Positions 8,324 through 33,772 of a stretch of 64,000 nt of DNA are shown here, in pieces; position 1 is the stretch's first letter, and the number at the start of each line of letters is the position of its first letter. The notes under the pieces are model-generated. The model made no database searches. It was not told the origin of the DNA and saw only the letters and a program-made list of their open reading frames with translations. The stretch comes from Escherichia coli. Its GTDB lineage: Bacteria > Pseudomonadota > Gammaproteobacteria > Enterobacterales > Enterobacteriaceae. The stretch lies in assembly GCF_048403405.1 (NCBI RefSeq), contig NZ_CP183129.1; one strand, 5' to 3'. A program made the translations under genes and the position numbers.

Positions 8324-9199
8324 ATGACCAGTAGCTATCTGCATTTTCCGGAGTTTGATCCGGTCATTTTCTCAATAGGACCCGTAGCGCTTCACTGGTA
8401 CGGCCTGATGTATCTGGTGGGTTTCATTTTTGCAATGTGGCTGGCAACACGTCGGGCGAATCGTCCGGGCAGCGGCTGGACCAAAAATGAAGTTGAAAAC
8501 TTACTCTATGCGGGCTTCCTCGGCGTCTTCCTCGGGGGACGTATTGGTTATGTTCTGTTCTACAATTTCCCGCAGTTTATGGCCGATCCGCTGTATCTGT
8601 TCCGTGTCTGGGACGGCGGCATGTCTTTCCACGGCGGCCTGATTGGCGTTATCGTGGTGATGATTATCTTTGCCCGCCGTACTAAACGTTCCTTCTTCCA
8701 GGTCTCTGATTTTATCGCCCCACTCATTCCGTTTGGTCTTGGTGCCGGGCGTCTGGGCAACTTTATTAACGGTGAATTGTGGGGCCGCGTTGACCCGAAC
8801 TTCCCGTTTGCCATGCTGTTCCCTGGCTCCCGTACAGAAGATATTTTGCTGCTGCAAACCAACCCGCAGTGGCAATCCATTTTCGACACTTACGGTGTGC
8901 TGCCGCGCCACCCATCACAGCTTTACGAGCTGCTGCTGGAAGGTGTGGTGCTGTTTATTATCCTCAACCTGTATATTCGTAAACCGCGCCCAATGGGAGC
9001 AGTCTCAGGCTTGTTCCTGATTGGTTACGGCGCGTTTCGCATCATTGTTGAGTTTTTCCGCCAGCCCGACGCGCAGTTTACCGGTGCCTGGGTGCAGTAC
9101 ATCAGCATGGGGCAAATTCTTTCCATCCCGATGATTGTCGCGGGTGTGATCATGATGGTCTGGGCATATCGTCGCAGCCCACAGCAACACGTTTCCTGA
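8324..9199 (+). CDS. lgt: prolipoprotein diacylglyceryl transferase
   Basis: 291-aa membrane ORF; immediately upstream of thyA (6-bp gap). Confidence 0.9.
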
Positions 9200-9205
9200 G
9201 GAACC

Positions 9206-10000
9206 ATGAAACAGTATTTAGAACTGATGCAAAAAGTGCTCGACGAAGGCACACAGAAAAACGACCGTACCGGAACCGGAACGCTTTCCATTTTTGGTCA
9301 TCAGATGCGTTTTAACCTGCAGGATGGATTCCCGCTGGTGACAACTAAACGTTGCCACCTGCGTTCCATCATCCATGAACTGCTGTGGTTTCTGCAGGGC
9401 GACACTAACATTGCTTATCTACACGAAAACAATGTCACCATCTGGGACGAATGGGCCGATGAAAACGGCGACCTCGGGCCAGTGTATGGTAAACAGTGGC
9501 GCGCCTGGCCAACGCCAGATGGTCGTCATATTGACCAGATCACTACGGTACTGAACCAGCTGAAAAACGACCCGGATTCGCGCCGCATTATTGTTTCAGC
9601 GTGGAACGTAGGCGAACTGGATAAAATGGCGCTGGCACCGTGCCATGCATTCTTCCAGTTCTATGTGGCAGACGGCAAACTCTCTTGCCAGCTTTATCAG
9701 CGCTCCTGTGACGTCTTCCTCGGCCTGCCGTTCAACATTGCCAGCTACGCGTTACTGGTGCATATGATGGCGCAGCAGTGCGATCTGGAAGTGGGTGATT
9801 TTGTCTGGACCGGTGGCGATACGCACCTGTACAGCAACCATATGGATCAAACTCATCTGCAATTAAGCCGCGAACCGCGTCCGCTGCCGAAGTTGATTAT
9901 CAAACGTAAACCCGAATCCATCTTCGACTACCGTTTCGAAGACTTTGAGATTGAAGGCTACGATCCGCATCCGGGCATTAAAGCGCCGGTGGCTATCTAA
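9206..10000 (+). CDS. thyA: thymidylate synthase
   Basis: 264-aa ORF with the active-site region ([13 protein letters not shown]) and conserved C-terminus. Confidence 0.95.
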
Positions 10001-10021
10001 TTACGAAACATCCTGCCAGAG

Positions 10022-10049
10022 CCGACGCCAGTGTGCGTCGGTTTTTTTT
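10022..10049 (+). terminator. intrinsic terminator after thyA (ccgacgc-loop-gcgtcgg followed by a T run)
   Basis: Hairpin plus T8 read directly from the sequence, about 20 nt after the thyA stop. Confidence 0.6.
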
Positions 10050-10184
10050 ACCCTCCGTTAAATTCTTCGAGACACCTTCCCGAAATTTTGCAACGTCCTG
10101 CAACGGCGTAAATAGTCCGGAAGATGCGCCGAAGAAATAGAAACTGGCCCTCGTCTTTTTTTCTCCTCGCTCCATACTGCCGGC

Positions 10185-10655
10185 ATGAAAACACAACGTG
10201 GTTATACGCTGATTGAAACGCTGGTCGCGATGCTGATTCTGGTCATGCTAAGCGCAAGTGGACTCTATGGCTGGCAATACTGGCAGCAGTCGCAACGGCT
10301 TTGGCAAACCGCCAGCCAGGCGCGGGACTATTTGCTCTATTTACGTGAAGATGCCAACTGGCATAACCGCGACCACAGTATCAGTCTTATCAGGGAGGGG
10401 ACGTTATGGTGCCTTGTGAGTTCCGCTGCTGGGGCCAATACCTGTCATGGCAGTTCACCATTGGTCTTTGTGCCACGCTGGCCCGAAGTCGAAATGAGCG
10501 ATCTGACACCTTCGCTTGCTTTCTTTGGCCTGCGCAATACCGCATGGGCCGGGCATATTCGCTTCAAAAACTCAACGGGCGAGTGGTGGCTGGTGGTTTC
10601 GCCGTGGGGAAGACTCCGGCTTTGTCAGCAAGGAGAAACAGAAGGATGCCTATAA
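10185..10655 (+). CDS. ppdA: prepilin-type N-terminal cleavage/methylation-domain protein (pseudopilin-like)
   Basis: 156-aa ORF with N-terminal [11 protein letters not shown] pilin-type signal. Confidence 0.8.
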
Positions 10656-23787: not shown

Positions 23788-25119
23788 TTACCCCAAATCC
23801 GCCATCAACACTTTGGATTTACGCTGGTAGTTGTACAACTGCTTTTTGCTCTCGGGCAGTAAATCAATATCCACTGGGGTAAATCCACGTTCCTGGAACC
23901 AGTGAATACTGCGCGTGGTCAGCACAAATAATTTGCTTAAGCCGCTCTGCTTCGCCTGAGCGGCAATGCGTTCCAGCAGAACCTCGCCCCGTGATGAACT
24001 GCGGTAATCCGGGTGAACTGCCACACAGGCCATTTCCCCAATCTTCTCTTCCGGGAACGGATAGAGCGCGGCGCAGGCAATAGTCGTGTTATCGCGCTGA
24101 ATAATGGTGAATTTATCGATTTCCATCTCCAGCTGCTCGCGAGAACGGCGTACCAGAATACCTTGCTGCTCCAGCGGGCGAATCAACTCCAGAATACCGC
24201 CAATATCGTTGATTGTTGCGCGACGAATCTGCTCGGCGCTTTCCATCACAATCTGCGTACCGATACCGTCGCGTGAGAACAACTCTTGCAACAGCGCGCC
24301 ATCTTCCTGATAACTGATTAAATGACAGCGACGCACGCCGCTGCGGCAGGCTTTCACTGCGCCACGCAAAAAGCGCACCGTACCGGAGTTGTAATCGCCT
24401 TTCTCTTCCTGGGCTTCTACCCGCGCTTGCGCTTCGTTAGGGAAAAGTTCGGAGACAATATCACCGTCGTCATTAGTAACGCCCTGGGAAGAGCAAAAAC
24501 CAATCATCTTTTCAGCTTTCAGTTTGATGGCTAGTTGAGTGGCAATCTCTTCCGAGGTCAGATTAAAGCTCTCGCCAGTGACTGAAACAGCGACCGGCCC
24601 CATTAGCACTATTGCACCGCTGTCCAGTTGACGATGGATCGCGTCTTCATCAATCCGCCGGATACGCCCGCTATGGCAGTAATCCACTCCGTCATCGACG
24701 CCCAGCGGCTGGGCGATAATAAAATTGCCACTGACGACGTTGATATGCGCGCCCTGTAGCGGCGTGTTATTGAGACTCATCGACAGGCGAGCAGTAATAT
24801 CCAGTTGCAATGTTCCCGCAGCCTGCTTCACCAGTTCCAGTGTTTTGGCGTCGGTCACACGTATATTCTTGTGATACAGCGGTTCGTGGTGATGCGCAGC
24901 CAGATTTGCGTCGATCTGCGGACGTGCGCCATAGATCACCACCAGACGGATGCCGAGGCTGTGCAGCAACCCGATATCATTAACGATACTGGAGAAATTC
25001 TCATGCTCAATGGCTTCACCGCCGAGCATGATGACAAACGTTTTTCCCCGGTGGGTATTGATATAGGGAACCGAATGGCGGAATCCCTCGACCAGCTCGG
25101 TTTTACGTTCCTTTACCAC
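23788..25119 (-). CDS. argA: N-acetylglutamate synthase (amino-acid kinase domain + GNAT domain)
   Basis: ORF-track frame 23788..25185; probable GTG start at 25119 giving [11 protein letters not shown]... and 443 aa. Confidence 0.9.
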
Positions 25120-25350
25120 GGCACACCTCTTTGCATGATTATTCGAAATTAGTGTATTTTTATTCTGTTTTTTCGCAGGGTGCAAGTGTAAATTTTATGC
25201 GAGAGCGACTTTTTTATCAGTAATGCCGTGAATATAAAAAGAATGTTTACCGTTTATTAGATGACAGATTATGCGTCTTTCGCTAAAGTTTCCGGTCAAA
25301 TTAGTCGTTTACTTGTTACACAGCTTAGATTTCTTTTGCTCGGGAGAGGC

Positions 25351-26604
25351 ATGTCAGGATCCAACACTGCAATCAGCCGTCGTCGTTTACTGCAAGGCGC
25401 GGGTGCCATGTGGCTATTGAGCGTAAGTCAGGTCAGTCTGGCTGCGGTCAGCCAGGTCGTGGCGGTGCGCGTCTGGCCTGCGTCCAGCTACACCCGCGTG
25501 ACGGTAGAATCAAATCGTCAGCTGAAATATAAGCAGTTCGCGTTGAGTAACCCGGAACGCGTGGTGGTGGATATCGAAGATGTAAACCTGAACTCGGTAC
25601 TCAAGGGGATGGCGGCACAAATTCGTGCAGACGACCCGTTCATCAAGTCGGCGCGCGTCGGGCAATTTGACCCGCAGACCGTACGCATGGTTTTTGAATT
25701 AAAGCAAAACGTAAAACCGCAGCTGTTTGCCCTTGCGCCGGTCGCTGGGTTTAAAGAGCGTCTGGTGATGGACCTCTATCCGGCCAATGCACAGGATATG
25801 CAGGACCCGCTGCTGGCGCTGCTGGAGGATTACAACAAAGGCGACCTCGAAAAGCAGGTGCCGCCAGCACAAAGTGGTCCACAACCGGGTAAAGCAGGGC
25901 GCGATCGTCCGATTGTCATTATGCTTGACCCTGGCCACGGTGGCGAAGACTCCGGTGCGGTGGGGAAATACAAAACGCGCGAAAAAGACGTGGTATTGCA
26001 AATAGCTCGCCGTCTGCGCTCTCTGATCGAGAAAGAGGGCAATATGAAGGTGTACATGACGCGCAATGAAGACATCTTCATTCCGTTGCAAGTGCGCGTA
26101 GCAAAAGCCCAGAAACAGCGTGCTGACCTGTTTGTCTCTATCCATGCCGACGCCTTTACCAGCCGTCAGCCGAGCGGTTCCTCTGTGTTTGCGCTCTCAA
26201 CCAAAGGTGCAACCAGTACTGCGGCAAAATATCTGGCACAAACCCAGAACGCCTCGGACTTGATTGGTGGCGTGAGCAAAAGCGGTGACCGCTATGTCGA
26301 CCACACCATGTTCGATATGGTGCAGTCGCTGACCATTGCCGACAGCCTGAAGTTTGGTAAAGCGGTGCTGAATAAGCTCGGTAAAATCAACAAGCTGCAT
26401 AAAAATCAGGTTGAACAGGCCGGGTTTGCCGTACTAAAGGCACCAGATATTCCCTCCATTCTGGTCGAAACGGCGTTTATCAGTAACGTTGAGGAAGAGC
26501 GTAAACTGAAAACGGCGACCTTCCAGCAGGAAGTTGCGGAGTCTATTCTTGCGGGGATTAAAGCGTATTTTGCCGATGGGGCGACGCTGGCGAGAAGGGG
26601 ATGA
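25351..26604 (+). CDS. amiC: N-acetylmuramoyl-L-alanine amidase with Tat signal
   Basis: ATG at 25351 gives [19 protein letters not shown] (twin-arginine signal); ORF-track start 25261 is an extension; amidase_3 domain at the C-terminus. Confidence 0.9.
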
Positions 26605-26777
26605 TGTTTTTATTTATTCAATGAATTTATATTTCGTTGAATAGATAACATTTTCATGAATATTAGATGCTGGTTTTGTGACTGATGTCGAATATTTGAA
26701 TGTCGGCTTGAAAAATAAGCCGACCATCTCTTTAATTAAACACAATTCCGTGTAATGTATACACATTAGTTAATCAT

Positions 26778-26850
26778 CTTGTAACTGTTAAATCAGGCAA
26801 GGCAATGTTTGAAGTAATTATTACTTCTGACGTGCCTTGCCTTTTTTTTT
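26778..26850 (+). promoter_or_regulatory. RAT (ribonucleic antiterminator) element overlapping an intrinsic terminator in the leader of the antiterminator gene
   Basis: ttgtaactgttaaatcaggcaagg resembles the sac/bgl/lic RAT consensus; its 3' half (aggcaaggca, 26795-26804) pairs perfectly with tgccttgcct (26833-26842), which is followed by T8. Confidence 0.7.
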
Positions 26851-26861
26851 GGAGTCATGGA

Positions 26862-27686
26862 ATGATCATCGAAAAAGTCATGAACAATAATTGTGTACAG
26901 GCATCGATGAATGGACAGGAGGTTATCATTTCTGGACCTGGCGTCGGTTACAACAAAAAATATGGAATGTCGGTCCCTGAGCATCCGGCTAACCGGATTT
27001 TTTATGTCAGAAATGAACAAAAAAACAAACTCTATAAATTGATTGAACATGTAGATATTGAGTATGTGTTTGTTGCCGAAAAAATAGTGCAATATGCGGA
27101 GAAAAATCTCGAAAAAAATCTCAATCCATCGCTACTATTGATTCTTGCGGATCACATTTCGAATGCAATATCCCGAGTCGCTTCAGGTATACAAATTAAT
27201 AATGTTTTCCTTGATGAAATCAAAGCGTTGTACAAAGCAGAATATGCAATAAGCCGGGATGCATTAACCATCATCAATGAGCAATTTAGCTTTCAACTTC
27301 CGGATGATGAGATTGGTTTTATTGCATTGCATATTTTAAATAACTATGAAAATTCATCTGATTATGAATCGGTACGGATTATTGAATTATCTCAAAAAAT
27401 CACGGAGATTATCGAGGGTATTTATAACCGAAAGGTGGACAGAAGTTCATTTAACTATTCAAGATTTATGATGCACCTTAAGTATTTTTCTAATCGAGTT
27501 TTATGTAATGAAAAGATAAAACAGAAAGATATTGGTGACATCTATGAGCAGTTTCTTGAGAAAGACATCCTGTTACAGCGCGCAATTCATGAAATTGAAA
27601 GGTATCTGTATGCCACTTTTAAATATGAATTAATTTTAGAAGAAAAACTATATCTCTCAATTCGTACCAAAGTATTAATGGACTAA
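26862..27686 (+). CDS. BglG/LicT/SacY-family transcription antiterminator (CAT RNA-binding domain + two PRDs)
   Basis: ATG at 26862 preceded by ggag; N-terminus MIIEKVMNNNCV... aligns to LicT/BglG (MKIAKILNNNVV); the ORF-track start 26805 lies inside the leader terminator. Confidence 0.85.
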   Translation: MIIEKVMNNNCVQASMNGQEVIISGPGVGYNKKYGMSVPEHPANRIFYVRNEQKNKLYKLIEHVDIEYVFVAEKIVQYAEKNLEKNLNPSLLLILADHISNAISRVASGIQINNVFLDEIKALYKAEYAISRDALTIINEQFSFQLPDDEIGFIALHILNNYENSSDYESVRIIELSQKITEIIEGIYNRKVDRSSFNYSRFMMHLKYFSNRVLCNEKIKQKDIGDIYEQFLEKDILLQRAIHEIERYLYATFKYELILEEKLYLSIRTKVLMD

Positions 27687-27717
27687 TTATATATAACATT
27701 TATATGAGATAACCCAC

Positions 27718-29298
27718 ATGAAACAAAAGAAAGCCTGGAGTTTTTTTCAGAGCCTGGGGAAGGCATTTATGTATCCCATTGCTCTGCTAAGTGTATGTGG
27801 CATGATGCTAGGGCTAGGAAGTGGTTTAGCCAGTGATGATATGGCAAAGTTAATTCCATTTCTGGCTATTCCAATAATTAAAACCATACTTGATTTCATT
27901 GTTAGCCTTGGTTTGTTTGCCTTTGTTAATTTACCTGTATTGTTTGCGATAGCAATTCCCTTAGGATTATTAAAAGAGAAAGAGGATAAAGCCTATGGCG
28001 CTTTTTCTGGCTTAATTGGTTTTATGGCGATGCATCTGGGAACGAACTTTTATCTTAAACAGCACGACTTATTGGTCGCTGCTGACCAAATGTCGACACA
28101 TGGGCAAACCATCATTCTGGGGATCCAGTCCTACAATACCAGCGTGTTAGGGGGAATTGTTGCTGGGTTATTAGTCGCCAGCATGTATAAAAAGATCGTT
28201 AATTTACGCATTCCAGAATCATTAGGTTTTTATAGCGGCCCACGTCTGGTGCCTATCATTACACTGATTGTGATGAGTGGATTTGGTCTGATCATTCCTT
28301 TTATCTGGCCGCCGTTTTTCAATCTCTTCATGCTCATTGGCCACTGGATATCAACTTCCGGTCCTGTTGGTTATTTCTTCTATGCAGTTGCCGAACGTGT
28401 GACGATTCCTTTTGGCTTAAACCATCTGGTGACGTCAGTGTTCCGCTTTACGCCAATCGGCGGTTCGGCTGTGATTGGCGGCGAAGAGTATTACGGCACC
28501 CTGAACATGTTTATGGCGTACGTCAAAGAGAATGCGGTCATTCCGCTGGATTTGGCGGGGAAAATGGAGCAGGGCAAACTGATGATTCAGTACGGTCTGG
28601 CTGGTGCTGCACTGGCCATGTATCGCACTGCTCATGCTCAAAACAGAAAGGCTATCAAAGCATTGCTTATTTCCGGTGTGCTTACGGTTATTATTGGTGG
28701 CGTCAGCGAACCGATTGAATTTCTGTTCTTATTTGTCAGTCCGCTGCTGTTTGTCTTCCATGCCTTTATGAATGGATTCGCCAACATGGTCTTGCCATAT
28801 ATGGGCGTGAAGATGGGATTTACTGGCGATCTGATTCAATTTATTAGCTTTGGCGTATTGCGTGGCACAAGAACAGGTTGGCCGATCGCGGTGTGTGTCG
28901 AAGTGGCCTATTTCTTCATTTATTACTTTGTGTTCCGTTGGACCATTCTCAAATTTAACCTGATGACCGTAGGACGTGAAGAGTCCAGTCCTGTCACGCT
29001 GAACGCTCACGAAGAAACTGCAATAGCTAATATCCCAGCTTATGATAAATCAGAGTTGCAGGCAGCGGAGCAAATGGTTAAGGCTCTGGGTGGAAAAGAA
29101 AATATTAAATCACTGGATAATTGTGTCACTCGTTTGCGTTTAACTATCGCAGATATGGGATTGATAGATGAGGCTGCAATTAAAAGTGCCGGAGGGATTG
29201 CGGTTGTGAAACTTGATCAAAATACCTTACAAGTCATTATCGGCACTAAAGTCATCGCCCTGCGTCGGGATATGGATAACTACATGGGGATACGCTGA
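27718..29298 (+). CDS. PTS permease EIICB, glucose/maltose (MalX/PtsG-like) family; no EIIA domain
   Basis: 526-aa polytopic ORF; C-terminal EIIB domain with phospho-cysteine motif NCVTRLRL. Confidence 0.85.
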   Translation: MKQKKAWSFFQSLGKAFMYPIALLSVCGMMLGLGSGLASDDMAKLIPFLAIPIIKTILDFIVSLGLFAFVNLPVLFAIAIPLGLLKEKEDKAYGAFSGLIGFMAMHLGTNFYLKQHDLLVAADQMSTHGQTIILGIQSYNTSVLGGIVAGLLVASMYKKIVNLRIPESLGFYSGPRLVPIITLIVMSGFGLIIPFIWPPFFNLFMLIGHWISTSGPVGYFFYAVAERVTIPFGLNHLVTSVFRFTPIGGSAVIGGEEYYGTLNMFMAYVKENAVIPLDLAGKMEQGKLMIQYGLAGAALAMYRTAHAQNRKAIKALLISGVLTVIIGGVSEPIEFLFLFVSPLLFVFHAFMNGFANMVLPYMGVKMGFTGDLIQFISFGVLRGTRTGWPIAVCVEVAYFFIYYFVFRWTILKFNLMTVGREESSPVTLNAHEETAIANIPAYDKSELQAAEQMVKALGGKENIKSLDNCVTRLRLTIADMGLIDEAAIKSAGGIAVVKLDQNTLQVIIGTKVIALRRDMDNYMGIR

Positions 29299-30482
29299 TG
29301 AATGTTTTTAATACCCCTATCTCCCGTAAAGGAACATATTGCACTCAATGGGACTTTTGTGAGGACAGATTTGGTGTAAAAGATGTATTACCATTTTCTA
29401 TTTCAGATATGGATCTTCCGATACCGGAAGCTATCATCAGGGCATTAAAAAAACGCCTGGAACACCCGATTTTAGGGTACAGCCGTTGGCAGCATGATGA
29501 TTATCTGAATGCGATAGTCAATTGGTATCATCAACAATATAAAACTGAAATAAAACCAGAATGGATCACCTATAGCCCAAGTGTGATGTATTCAATTGCT
29601 AAGGCAATAGAGTTATTAACATTGAATGGAGATAACATTCTCATTTTTACGCCTGTTTATAACGCATTTTTTGATGTAATTAAACAAAGTGGTCGAAATA
29701 TGCTAACAACCTCTTTGAATAAAGAAAATGAGAGAGGCTACGCTATCAACTGGCAAGATTTTGAGCTAAAAATTAAAAGCGCGAAGATGGTGTTATTGTG
29801 TAATCCTCATAACCCGACAGGAACCGTCTGGTCGGAAGAAGATCTCTTCAAAATCGCTGCAAGCTGCGCAAAACAAAAAATCTGGCTATGTTCAGATGAA
29901 ATTCACAGTGATTTTGTTTTTAACCATGGTTTCACGTCCGCGTTAAAAATAAAAAATGACAAAGTAGTGGTGTTAAATTCGATTTCGAAAACATTTAATG
30001 TTCCTGCACTAACAGGATCATATATGATATCCGCTGACCAGGATTTTAATGATAAGTTTAGAACGATATCAAGATATCGCGATTTTGTAAACTCACCATC
30101 TATATTGAATGTGATTGCTACCATTGTTGCTTATAACGAATGTGAAGAATGGTTAAAGTCGTTAAAGGATCATATTGCCTCTAACATTCAATTTACCCAG
30201 CAGTATTTGAATGAAAATATTCCAGAATTGATCGTGAGGTCCGCTGAGGGTTGCTATTTTTCGTGGATAGATTGCTCGGCCATTGGCTATCCCTTTGATA
30301 AATTTTACCGACGATTAATTGATGAAGGGAAAGTGGGTATTATGGCGGGGTATGTTTATGGTACGGAAGGTGAGGGCTATCTGCGTCTGAATCTGGCCTG
30401 CGGTCGAGAAAAATTATATATGGGGCTTGTGCGCCTTGCGAGTGTAATTAAAAATATTAATCAGGAAAAAGAAAATGAATAA
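29298..30482 (+). CDS. MalY/PatB-like PLP-dependent C-S lyase (aminotransferase class I/II fold)
   Basis: 394 aa; N-terminus GTYCTQWDF...DVLPFSISDMD closely parallels MalY; PLP-lysine motif SISKTFN; start overlaps the PTS stop. Confidence 0.8.
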   Translation: MNVFNTPISRKGTYCTQWDFCEDRFGVKDVLPFSISDMDLPIPEAIIRALKKRLEHPILGYSRWQHDDYLNAIVNWYHQQYKTEIKPEWITYSPSVMYSIAKAIELLTLNGDNILIFTPVYNAFFDVIKQSGRNMLTTSLNKENERGYAINWQDFELKIKSAKMVLLCNPHNPTGTVWSEEDLFKIAASCAKQKIWLCSDEIHSDFVFNHGFTSALKIKNDKVVVLNSISKTFNVPALTGSYMISADQDFNDKFRTISRYRDFVNSPSILNVIATIVAYNECEEWLKSLKDHIASNIQFTQQYLNENIPELIVRSAEGCYFSWIDCSAIGYPFDKFYRRLIDEGKVGIMAGYVYGTEGEGYLRLNLACGREKLYMGLVRLASVIKNINQEKENE

Positions 30483-31071
30483 CTCGGAACTTATACATCT
30501 TATTAAACATTTTATGCGTAACGAACATAAGGCCGTTGAAGAGGTTATTGATTCCCCACTTTCTGAAGTCGCTAATTTAATTAAAGTATTACAATCTTGT
30601 CAGGGTAAAGTTGTTTTTATTGGTGTTGGTAAGTCCGGTATTATTGCCAGAAAACTCGCAGCAACATTTGCCAGTACCGGAACTCCCTCGTTTTTTGTTC
30701 ACGGTACGGAAGCGGTACACGGCGACCTTGGAATGGTGGCGAAAGACGATGTTGTTATTCTTATTTCAAACAGTGGTGAGACGGCGGAAATCCTGGCGAC
30801 ACTGCCTAGTCTGAAAAGAATGGGTAATTATTTGATCTCTTTTACCCGCAGTCATCACTCATCGCTTGCGATAAGTTGTGATTTATCTGTTGAAATCCCC
30901 GTCAAAAGTGAGGCGGATAATTTAGGTTTAGCACCGTCATGCTCGTCTACTGTTGTTCTGGTTGTTGGTGATGCGGTGGCGCTTGCACTCTCCGAATTGA
31001 AAAAATTTACTCGTGCCGATTTCGGCTTATATCATCCAGGAGGTGCACTCGGCATTAAAGCAAATTCATAA
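30475..31071 (+). CDS. SIS-domain-only sugar-phosphate isomerase-like protein (resembles the N-terminal half of KdsD/GutQ arabinose-5-phosphate isomerases, no CBS domains)
   Basis: 198 aa; motifs GVGKSGIIARKLAATFASTGTPSFFVHGTEAVHGDLGM, SNSGET and HPGGALG; start overlaps the MalY-like stop by 8 nt. Confidence 0.8.
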   Translation: MNNSELIHLIKHFMRNEHKAVEEVIDSPLSEVANLIKVLQSCQGKVVFIGVGKSGIIARKLAATFASTGTPSFFVHGTEAVHGDLGMVAKDDVVILISNSGETAEILATLPSLKRMGNYLISFTRSHHSSLAISCDLSVEIPVKSEADNLGLAPSCSSTVVLVVGDAVALALSELKKFTRADFGLYHPGGALGIKANS

Positions 31072-31142
31072 TTTCAAAATATAAATACAGTAACCGGTCA
31101 CGCCATCTTTTGGGGTGGCGTTCATTGAAGTGAGTGTCAGCT

Positions 31143-32090
31143 ATGAAAAATGTTCTGGTCACCGTCCCCAGCTTTTCAGCACGCTGTGTTTCCGCCAGCA
31201 AGTTGCTAAGAGAGAATAATTTTAATCTTATTATTAAGAATAATGTGGAGCATCTGCTTAAATCAGAATCCACTGCATTACGAGAATCTATTTGCGCGGT
31301 CATCGCCGGAAAAGATTGTTATCAGGCGGATACGCTATCATTGCTGCCTGGTGTGAAAATAATATCGAGATTCGGGACGGGGATAGACAATATTGATCTT
31401 CGTGCGGCACAGCAATCCGGTATTGTAGTCAAAAATGCGGTTGGGATTAATTCAAATGCGGTTGCGGAATTTATCATTGGACTTATCTTTGCGAGCATGA
31501 GAAATATTCCTGGCAGCTATCATGCGATGCAAAATGGCTACTGGGTTGAGTCGCATGGCTGTGAATTACAAGGGAAACGGATTGGCCTGGTTGGCTACGG
31601 TAATATAGGTAAAACCCTGGCGAAAAGGTTGTCTGGTTTTGATGTTGAGCTTTTAGCTTTTGACAAACAACCCGATTTTCAGGCCGCTGGCAAAGATGGA
31701 GTTCAGTTTGTATCAATTGAAGATATCTTTATGCAGTCGCATGTCATCATTGTTCTTTTACCTTTTTCTCCTGAGCTGGAGAACTTCATTAGTCATAAAT
31801 ATTTGTCAATGATGCGCAATGGTGCTCTGATCATCAATGCCGCAAGGGGAAAGTTGCTGGATGAGGGCGCTTTACTTCAGGTGATTGAAGAACGAAATGT
31901 GTTTGCGGCGCTGGATGTGTTTAGCTCTGAACCGTTGGCGCAATTTAGCCCACTGCTACATGCCAAAAATATCATTACAACGCCGCATATTGCGGCCGCC
32001 ACCGTTGAGTCATACCAGCAAACCGGGATACACGTTGCCCAGTCAATAATTGATTACTTCGCAGGAAGGGAGATAAAAAACGTGTTGTGA
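31143..32090 (+). CDS. D-isomer-specific 2-hydroxyacid dehydrogenase, NAD-binding
   Basis: ATG at 31143 preceded by gaagtgag (ORF-track 31134 is a GTG upstream); Rossmann motif GLVGYGNIGKTLAKRL. Confidence 0.8.
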   Translation: MKNVLVTVPSFSARCVSASKLLRENNFNLIIKNNVEHLLKSESTALRESICAVIAGKDCYQADTLSLLPGVKIISRFGTGIDNIDLRAAQQSGIVVKNAVGINSNAVAEFIIGLIFASMRNIPGSYHAMQNGYWVESHGCELQGKRIGLVGYGNIGKTLAKRLSGFDVELLAFDKQPDFQAAGKDGVQFVSIEDIFMQSHVIIVLLPFSPELENFISHKYLSMMRNGALIINAARGKLLDEGALLQVIEERNVFAALDVFSSEPLAQFSPLLHAKNIITTPHIAAATVESYQQTGIHVAQSIIDYFAGREIKNVL

Positions 32091-32116
32091 GTTCAGCGAA
32101 CGAAGATTTTAAATAC

Positions 32117-32149
32117 AAAAAAACCGCAATTTGTGGAACACATTGCGGT
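32117..32149 (-). terminator. intrinsic terminator downstream of the tRNA-fMet operon (minus strand)
   Basis: On the minus strand, stem ccgcaat/attgcgg followed by T7; lies just 3' of the last tRNA copy. Confidence 0.55.
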
Positions 32150-32168
32150 TTATCAGCATTCTAAGTAT

Positions 32169-32245
<77 letters not shown>

Positions 32246-32279
32246 TCACCGTACTGCTTTTACTTCATCAAATTTTGAT

Positions 32280-32356
<77 letters not shown>

Positions 32357-32389
32357 TCACCGTACTGCTTTACTTCATCAAATTTTAAT

Positions 32390-32466
<77 letters not shown>

Positions 32467-32674
32467 TCCGTGGATGCGCACTATACTCCGCTCGCGTTTT
32501 CATGCAACCTTTTTTTTAACCCGATCACGGATTCGGCATGATTTTGAACAAAAACAAATCACTAAAGCCTATTTTTTGTGCAAAATTTGCGTCAGGGAGA
32601 GGCTGCTCATTTCATTAAACGCGGTGGTTTGTTATCTTCGTTGCGCCTTATTTTTTAACCTGAAGAAGAGAACA

Positions 32675-33772
32675 ATGAAAGGACGTTGGGTAAAGTACCT
32701 TCTTATGGGCACGGTTGTGGCAATGCTTGCCGCCTGCTCTTCCAAACCAACCGATCGCGGACAGCAATATAAAGACGGGAAATTTACCCAGCCTTTCTCT
32801 CTGGTGAACCAGCCAGATGCCGTTGGCGCGCCGATTAACGCCGGTGATTTTGCCGAGCAAATTAATCATATTCGTAATTCGTCACCGCGTCTGTATGGCA
32901 ACCAGAGTAATGTTTATAACGCGGTGCAAGAGTGGCTGCGCGCAGGCGGTGATACCCGCAATATGCGCCAGTTCGGCATTGATGCCTGGCAGATGGAAGG
33001 TGCCGACAACTATGGTAACGTGCAGTTTACAGGCTATTACACGCCGGTAATTCAGGCGCGCCATACCCGCCAGGGCGAGTTCCAGTATCCGATTTACCGT
33101 ATGCCGCCAAAACGTGGTCGTTTGCCGTCTCGTGCGGAGATCTACGCGGGGGCATTGAGCGATAAATACATCCTCGCTTACAGCAACTCCCTGATGGATA
33201 ACTTCATTATGGATGTGCAGGGTAGTGGGTATATCGACTTTGGTGATGGCAGTCCGCTTAACTTTTTCAGCTATGCAGGGAAAAACGGTCATGCCTATCG
33301 CAGCATTGGTAAGGTGCTGATCGACCGTGGCGAAGTGAAAAAAGAAGATATGTCGATGCAGGCGATTCGTCACTGGGGCGAAACACACAGTGAAGCCGAG
33401 GTTCGCGAGCTGCTGGAACAGAACCCGTCTTTCGTCTTCTTTAAACCGCAATCTTTTGCACCGGTGAAAGGGGCAAGTGCGGTGCCGCTGGTTGGCCGTG
33501 CTTCTGTTGCCTCCGATCGTTCAATTATTCCGCCAGGTACTACCTTGCTGGCAGAAGTGCCGCTGCTGGATAATAACGGCAAATTTAACGGTCAGTACGA
33601 ATTGCGTCTGATGGTGGCGCTGGATGTCGGTGGCGCAATCAAAGGCCAACACTTCGATATCTATCAAGGGATCGGGCCGGAAGCCGGGCACCGCGCAGGT
33701 TGGTACAACCACTATGGACGTGTCTGGGTGCTGAAAACGGCTCCGGGCGCAGGTAACGTCTTTAGCGGCTGA
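32675..33772 (+). CDS. mltA: membrane-bound lytic murein transglycosylase A (lipoprotein)
   Basis: ATG at 32675 gives MKGRWVKYLLMGTVVAMLAACSS (lipobox), 365 aa; the ORF-track start 32393 is an artefact reading through the tRNA genes. Confidence 0.9.
   Translation: MKGRWVKYLLMGTVVAMLAACSSKPTDRGQQYKDGKFTQPFSLVNQPDAVGAPINAGDFAEQINHIRNSSPRLYGNQSNVYNAVQEWLRAGGDTRNMRQFGIDAWQMEGADNYGNVQFTGYYTPVIQARHTRQGEFQYPIYRMPPKRGRLPSRAEIYAGALSDKYILAYSNSLMDNFIMDVQGSGYIDFGDGSPLNFFSYAGKNGHAYRSIGKVLIDRGEVKKEDMSMQAIRHWGETHSEAEVRELLEQNPSFVFFKPQSFAPVKGASAVPLVGRASVASDRSIIPPGTTLLAEVPLLDNNGKFNGQYELRLMVALDVGGAIKGQHFDIYQGIGPEAGHRAGWYNHYGRVWVLKTAPGAGNVFSG

Follow-up and report, generated by a model that had tools for sequence, protein, structure and literature searches.

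A known single-domain sugar-phosphate isomerase in a horizontally acquired PTS operon of Escherichia coli

The gene considered here lies within a stretch of 64,000 nucleotides of Escherichia coli DNA (contig NZ_CP183129.1 of RefSeq assembly GCF_048403405.1), which is called the window in what follows. Near the middle of the window, homology to E. coli K-12 ends just past amiC, at position 26605, and restarts at 32167, beside the first of three tRNA-Met genes. Here, 70 bp of the spacer that K-12 has between amiC and metV have given way to an island. Its GC content is 40%, against 52% in the remainder of the window. The features of the island and its right border are as follows.

26606-32166, no strand: inserted island, 5561 bp (comparison with K-12)
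26778-26850, plus strand: operon leader, comprising an RAT-like sequence, a terminator hairpin, and nine U (read by eye; free energy of the fold)
26862-27686, plus strand: transcription antiterminator of the BglG/LicT family, 274 aa (LicT 230 bits, GlcT 183, BglG 102, all under the equivalog cut-offs)
27718-29298, plus strand: glucose-family PTS EIICB, MalX-like, 526 aa (TIGR02004 malX, 540 bits, cut-off 632)
29298-30482, plus strand: PLP-dependent C-S lyase of the MalY/PatB family, 394 aa (TIGR04350, 364 bits, over the cut-off of 340)
30475-31071, plus strand: stand-alone SIS-domain sugar-phosphate isomerase, 198 aa (ORF translation, Pfam, alignments, comparison with strain CFT073)
31143-32090, plus strand: D-isomer-specific 2-hydroxyacid dehydrogenase, PGDH-like, 315 aa (214 bits; start as in the CFT073 annotation)
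32169-32466, minus strand: three tRNA-Met (CAT) genes, the metV, metW, and metZ of K-12, forming the right border of the island (comparison with K-12, Rfam)

The three tRNAs, annotated in K-12 as initiator tRNAs, were all that an Rfam search of the island returned. The start of the antiterminator gene was adopted from the CFT073 annotation, and the MalX-like EIICB carries no EIIA domain. The SIS gene is thus the fourth of a five-gene operon that was acquired horizontally and sits between amiC and metZWV.

The SIS gene itself is intact. It begins with the ATG at 30475, preceded by an AGGA about 10 nt upstream, and runs on the plus strand for 198 codons to a TAA stop at 31069-31071. The start of the gene and the stop of the MalY/PatB-family gene overlap by 8 nt (ATGAATAA), an arrangement that suggests translational coupling of the two. 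Downstream, a spacer of 71 nt separates its stop from the ATG of the dehydrogenase gene. A terminator in this spacer was considered and rejected, as the best hairpin there is no better than that of shuffled sequence (z -1.1).

RefSeq annotates the ORF as a CDS, “KpsF/GutQ family sugar-phosphate isomerase.” By megablast, the gene is found, in one copy each, in 1688 of the 5426 complete E. coli genomes (about 31%), is intact in 1686, and is absent from 69% of the set. Its recurrence in so many genomes, together with the RefSeq call, means that this is no chance ORF.

The pair of genes upstream of the SIS gene recalls malX-malY of K-12 (PTS EIICB plus C-S lyase), in that it encodes a MalX-like and a MalY-like protein in the same order. 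Whereas malXY of K-12 is repressed by MalI, the pair in the island stands under an antiterminator and is extended by an isomerase and a dehydrogenase. A comparative-genomics paper on strain BEN2908 (2026) gives the identities of the pair to MalX and MalY as 41% and 36%, and lists the same five genes, under the label “GR 19,” as uncharacterised.

Control of the operon is suggested by its leader. At 26778-26803 lies a sequence, CUUGUAACUGUUAAAUCAGGCAAGGC, that was spotted by reading the leader and judged to be RAT-like against consensus sequences of RAT sites; a scan with the strict RAT consensus, allowing up to three mismatches, gave no match. The 3' half of this sequence is the 5' arm of a long hairpin at 26795-26842 with nine U after it. 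The leader folds with a free energy of -29.6 kcal/mol (z -5.9), and none of 200 shuffled sequences folded as well. A generic scan for terminators, which demands a loop of 3-8 nt, did not call this one; a hairpin outside that loop rule is the probable reason.

Read in this way, the leader has the classical layout of PTS-controlled antitermination of the BglG/LicT type. Because the 5' arm of the terminator overlaps the RAT-like site, expression of the operon should depend on a PTS substrate. An earlier note on this DNA had placed the SIS gene within a catabolic operon; both the families of its neighbours and the leader hairpin agree, and the catabolic setting is well supported.

What kind of isomerase, then, does the gene encode? 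The translation holds GVGKSG, ATFASTGTPSFFVHG, SNSGET, and HPGGALG, so that all of the KdsD/GutQ-type motifs quoted in the earlier note are indeed there. In the 198 residues, Pfam places one SIS domain (PF01380, residues 41-170, E 2e-26); no CBS domain is found. The protein was aligned with KdsD and GutQ of E. coli K-12 and with KpsF of CFT073, whose sequences were taken from the annotated genomes. Its C-terminus lies 11 residues past the HPGG motif; in the other three, a CBS pair of about 130 residues follows. The product does end, as had been proposed, where the tandem CBS domains would begin.

The family profiles point the same way. The top NCBIfam matches are KdsD (199 bits), kpsF/GutQ TIGR00393 (193 bits), and GutQ (163 bits). 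Each score lies under its curated cut-off (505 for the KdsD equivalog, 203.7 for TIGR00393, 481 for GutQ), since the match covers just the SIS half of a profile; the protein spans positions 1-152 in TIGR00393 and 37-201 in the model for KdsD. Other SIS families fall far short of theirs. HxlB, the next best, gives 51 bits against 160, MurQ 28-30 against 168-302, and GmhA 19 against 265, which rules out an identity as HxlB, MurQ, or GmhA.

The earlier note had called for an alignment that would confirm the catalytic residues, and five invariant columns do so. K53, H82, E105, E146, and H187 align with K59, H88, E111, E152, and H193 of KdsD, which we take from the KdsD structure literature to be catalytic. 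All five are invariant between the SIS protein and KdsD, GutQ, and KpsF, and likewise in an alignment of 17 SIS-only relatives drawn from the Enterobacteriaceae and the Firmicutes. From these comparisons, the protein is very probably a SIS-fold aldose-ketose isomerase that lacks the regulatory CBS pair.

It shares, then, the SIS fold signature and the five catalytic residues with KdsD, GutQ, and KpsF, the TIGR00393 proteins. It differs from them in lacking the tandem CBS domains, in falling into a separate group in a tree, and in its surroundings: KdsD, GutQ, and KpsF adjoin Kdo/LPS, sorbitol, and capsule genes, respectively, while the SIS gene is part of a PTS operon. The identity of its SIS part to those of KdsD, GutQ, and KpsF is 48.5%, 36.5%, and 41.4% in the alignment used for the tree and 50%, 37%, and 43% in the alignment with those three proteins. 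The neighbour-joining tree, in which 19 sequences give a clear signal from a small sample and a simple method, sets all of the SIS-only proteins apart from the corresponding parts of KdsD, GutQ, and KpsF, a split recovered in 100 of 100 bootstraps.

The best 120 full-length matches in a large protein collection are all SIS-only, with lengths of about 196-208 aa. Those from Enterobacteriaceae come from Atlantibacter (86% identity), Citrobacter (82%), and Enterobacter (61-68%). Many others, at 50-60%, come from Firmicutes: Companilactobacillus, Lactiplantibacillus, Mammaliicoccus, Virgibacillus, Oceanobacillus, Enterococcus, and Fusibacter. Among solved structures, 3ETN (from Bacteroides fragilis) and 3FXA (“SIS domain protein”) are likewise SIS proteins without further domains; they measure about 200 aa, and their alignment with the SIS protein extends to the HPGG motif. 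They are far more distant from the SIS protein (E about 1e-30) than is the SIS domain of KdsD, 2XHZ (E 4e-41).

Might the gene simply be a decayed kdsD, gutQ, or kpsF from which the CBS half has been lost? The identity to KdsD and the stop at a domain border would suit such a history, but a truncated pseudogene is refuted by the length of about 196-203 aa conserved across genera, by the split in the tree, by the 71-nt spacer (it holds no CBS remnant and, being so short before the next ATG, leaves no decayed CBS half downstream), by the intact copies in 1686 genomes, and by the crystals of the protein from the uropathogenic strain CFT073.

That CFT073 protein, WP_001066223.1 (C_RS16165, a gene of 597 bp at NC_004431.1 3250609-3251205), is identical to the SIS protein at 192 of 198 positions (97%). 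The six differences, S4T, E5D, R15H, H18L, V32F, and R115K, are conservative or of surface type, and none is catalytic; five fall within residues 4-32, the region of the N-terminal helix, and the sixth is at residue 115. The CFT073 sequence is that of the chains in PDB entries 5UQI and 5VHU, deposited as “Phosphosugar isomerase.” The SIS-only isomerase is thus already known, and is not a new candidate enzyme.

The surroundings of the gene in CFT073 are the same as well. The five genes occur there in the same order, with amiC and the three tRNA-Met genes as borders, and positions 25001-32182 of the window are colinear with CFT073 at 95% nucleotide identity. There are two differences. The island of CFT073 adjoins a type VI secretion cluster, which the island in the window does not, and the MalY-like gene just 5' of the SIS gene is clearly a different allele from that of CFT073.

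The earlier note mentioned that an isomerase of this kind, c3406, had been characterised biochemically in CFT073. As far as this can be checked, the link holds, given the 97% identity, the syntenic position, and the match to 5UQI and 5VHU. We infer that C_RS16165 is c3406 because its position fits and because it is the only member without CBS domains in the CFT073 regions examined. The position follows from a count. The metV island of CFT073 presumably starts at c3385; 20 type VI secretion ORFs (c3385-c3404) then make the dehydrogenase c3405 and the SIS gene c3406. These 20 ORFs are 19 annotated CDSs, with a frameshifted tssF counted twice. Names assigned in this way agree with the gene order in the CFT073 record, and c3405 to c3410 are reported to form an operon for a carbohydrate. 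A search of full-text literature for c3406, c3405, and related tags matched only unrelated catalogue numbers and contig names.

Taking WP_001066223.1, as we do, to be the c3406 product, the counterpart of the SIS protein in CFT073 is almost certainly the “unique arabinose 5-phosphate isomerase” of Mosberg et al. (2011). The earlier note had further suggested that the gene would supply a third such enzyme beside KdsD and GutQ. This depends on the strain; it would be the third where only those two occur, but in CFT073, which also has KpsF, it is the fourth. In the work of Mosberg and colleagues, purified c3406 protein from CFT073 is said to have arabinose-5-phosphate isomerase activity, interconverting arabinose-5-phosphate (A5P) and ribulose-5-phosphate (Ru5P). 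Deletion of c3406 alone reportedly caused no loss of colonisation in mice, from which its role may be dispensable or redundant. With high confidence, then, the ORF can be predicted to be the local allele of the single-domain D-arabinose-5-phosphate/D-ribulose-5-phosphate isomerase of CFT073.

An activity is, of course, not yet a role, and it is here that the neighbourhoods of the relatives are informative. These were examined at 11 loci. In Atlantibacter, a block of antiterminator, PTS, aminotransferase, and SIS genes occupies the same site, argA-amiC ... mltA; the dehydrogenase is not among the genes called at that locus. An Enterobacter contig has the same four genes at another site, and here the dehydrogenase is absent.

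The Firmicutes loci are organised in other ways. Clusters of the form RbsD-(LacI)-SIS-PfkB kinase-MFS hold the SIS gene in Mammaliicoccus, Oceanobacillus, and Neobacillus. Its neighbours in Lactiplantibacillus, Companilactobacillus, and Enterococcus are a PTS of the galactitol family, an enzyme of the DHDPS family, an aldolase of the KDPG type, and a PRD/EIIA regulator. The Fusibacter gene is flanked on one side by a TRAP transporter together with a DHDPS-family enzyme and on the other by a PfkB kinase.

A theme is common to the SIS-only neighbourhoods: uptake, followed by phosphorylation or cleavage, followed by isomerisation. The clusters with RbsD, LacI, PfkB, and MFS genes would fit a path from D-arabinose through A5P to Ru5P. 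Those with the galactitol-family PTS or the TRAP transporter would fit the cleavage of a 3-deoxy-ulosonic acid (Kdo, for example) to pyruvate and arabinose (or its phosphate). The Firmicutes that have SIS-only isomerases are not known to make Kdo. This, together with the shared theme, suggests that the SIS-only group would be catabolic, working in the direction from A5P to Ru5P.

Applied to the operon in the window, the proposal runs as follows. The PTS substrate would bring about antitermination at the leader, and the operon, SIS isomerase included, would be expressed. The isomerase would convert a pentose phosphate derived from that substrate, most simply A5P, into Ru5P, which would then enter the pentose-phosphate pathway. 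Supplying A5P for Kdo would not be its main job. In more general terms, the SIS-only isomerases would be catabolic enzymes that feed A5P to the pentose-phosphate pathway, and the enterobacterial operon would process a sugar conjugate by a route like that of malXY, with the sugar part of the conjugate emerging as A5P.

We offer this tentatively, as a possibility on the doubtful side. The catabolic direction is something that we purely infer. We know of no PTS product that would obviously give A5P after a C-S lyase step, and the dehydrogenase that is missing from the Enterobacter cluster, and was not called at the Atlantibacter locus, counts against the proposal.

It is also conceivable, if unlikely, that in the cell the isomerase acts on some other sugar phosphate, produced by the PTS and the MalY-like enzyme, and that its activity on A5P is a by-product of a KdsD-like active site. 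A MalX-like PTS, a C-S lyase, and a 2-hydroxyacid dehydrogenase do not, as a set, suggest a pentose pathway, and the protein scores under the curated cut-offs of every named isomerase family. Yet all of the residues important for A5P isomerisation in KdsD are kept across the SIS-only group, and several relatives adjoin RbsD, a PfkB kinase, and an MFS transporter, neighbours that would fit the conversion of a pentose to its 5-phosphate and on to Ru5P.

A distinctly unlikely role is that of a back-up for biosynthesis, in which the isomerase would make A5P from Ru5P for the Kdo of LPS or capsule, redundantly with KdsD, GutQ, and KpsF. With those three it shares its catalytic residues, and a review that cites Mosberg et al. 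(2011) places the arabinose-5-phosphate isomerase of the uropathogenic strain in the context of LPS precursor supply. Against this, the gene is part of an operon with PTS and antiterminator genes, and is not found with kds, lpt, or kps genes; its closest relatives outside the Enterobacteriaceae are from Firmicutes, in sugar-uptake clusters; and more than two thirds of the complete E. coli genomes do without it. The BEN2908 paper assigns the isomerase, via its similarity to KdsD, to the L-Ara4N modification of lipid A; nothing in the present data supports such a role.

Still other isomerases have been viewed as regulators, and the enzyme here might tune the amount of A5P, or of some related phosphosugar, to which its own operon would respond as a signal. 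A similar role has been proposed for GutQ and for Gram-positive isomerases; a paper that summarises Cech et al. (2017) gives the function of the Gram-positive isomerase as unknown and the enzyme as a hypothesised modulator of carbohydrate transport and metabolism. The gene for GutQ, moreover, ends the sorbitol PTS operon and adjoins the regulators of that operon. The operon in the window, however, already has a complete device for PTS-coupled antitermination, and a regulatory role for its isomerase is improbable.

As a gene, then, the SIS gene adds little; the structure of its product is solved, and roughly one complete E. coli genome in three carries it. For the substrate of the operon and the pathway that it serves, the link to the sugar-catabolic clusters of Firmicutes offers ideas that can be tested. 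Should the catabolic reading of A5P prove true, it would provide a handle on the natural substrate of gene pairs of the MalX/MalY type.

Over most of its length outside window 28900-30500, the island is 94-99.5% identical to the CFT073 locus that carries the same five genes. Within 28900-30500, which runs from the 3' portion of the PTS gene through all of the MalY/PatB gene, DNA identity to CFT073 is 85.5-91.5%. The MalY/PatB gene itself stands at about 86% over most of its length; the two proteins share 340 of 394 residues and differ at their C-termini. This looks like a patch that was recombined or is a divergent allele, and it stops exactly at the start codon of the SIS gene.

The two loci also differ downstream. 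The dehydrogenase gene of CFT073 is separated from the tRNA-Met genes by approximately 27 kb that hold a type VI secretion cluster, with the 40-bp sequence TTGCGGTTTGTCAGCATTCTAATAAATTGGTTGCGGGGGCC as a direct repeat on either side of it; the final 14 nt of the tRNA gene form part of this repeat. Only one copy of the repeat is present in the window, at 32143-32182, and this is the empty site.

The same region includes listed ORFs that carry a repeated peptide:

Window 32133-32411, together with the initial part of 32393-33772, + strand: ORFs with the repeated peptide RGPDLNRRPSGYEPDELP

These were rejected as protein-coding genes, being read-throughs of the antisense strand of the three tRNA-Met genes.

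The following hairpins lie within the island:

Window 26778-26850, 5' of the antiterminator gene: RAT-like sequence overlapping a strong terminator hairpin with U9
Window 31100-31121, in the 71 nt that separate the SIS gene from the dehydrogenase gene: small GC-rich stem-loop, ACGCCAUCU-UUUG-GGGUGGCGU

The first was not picked up by a generic terminator scan. The second is conserved in CFT073. The 71-nt spacer folds no better than shuffled sequence (z -1.1), and therefore no function is claimed for its hairpin.

The operon, as region "GR 19" of BEN2908, is given as uncharacterised in PMC12928451 (2026), where the SIS gene is assigned a role in the L-Ara4N modification of lipid A. Mosberg's name is absent from the text of that paper.

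Among the 1688 copies of the SIS gene in the E. coli genome collection, one is plasmid-borne; one record in the collection has just 60-80% identity to the gene. Atlantibacter hermannii (L010) carries the same island at the same site (argA-amiC ... mltA). There, no gene is called in the 1.8 kb from the SIS gene to mltA (8607-10382), so the dehydrogenase may have been lost or have decayed at this locus; this stretch is also where the tRNA genes would be expected.

The SIS-only relatives in Firmicutes (L006-L008, L011-L014) recur in three types of cluster:

Type 1: RbsD-LacI-SIS-PfkB-MFS
Type 2: galactitol-type PTS, DHDPS-family enzyme, aldolase and PRD regulator
Type 3: TRAP transporter, DHDPS-family enzyme, SIS and PfkB

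These clusters may encode pathways for D-arabinose or 3-deoxy-ulosonic acids.
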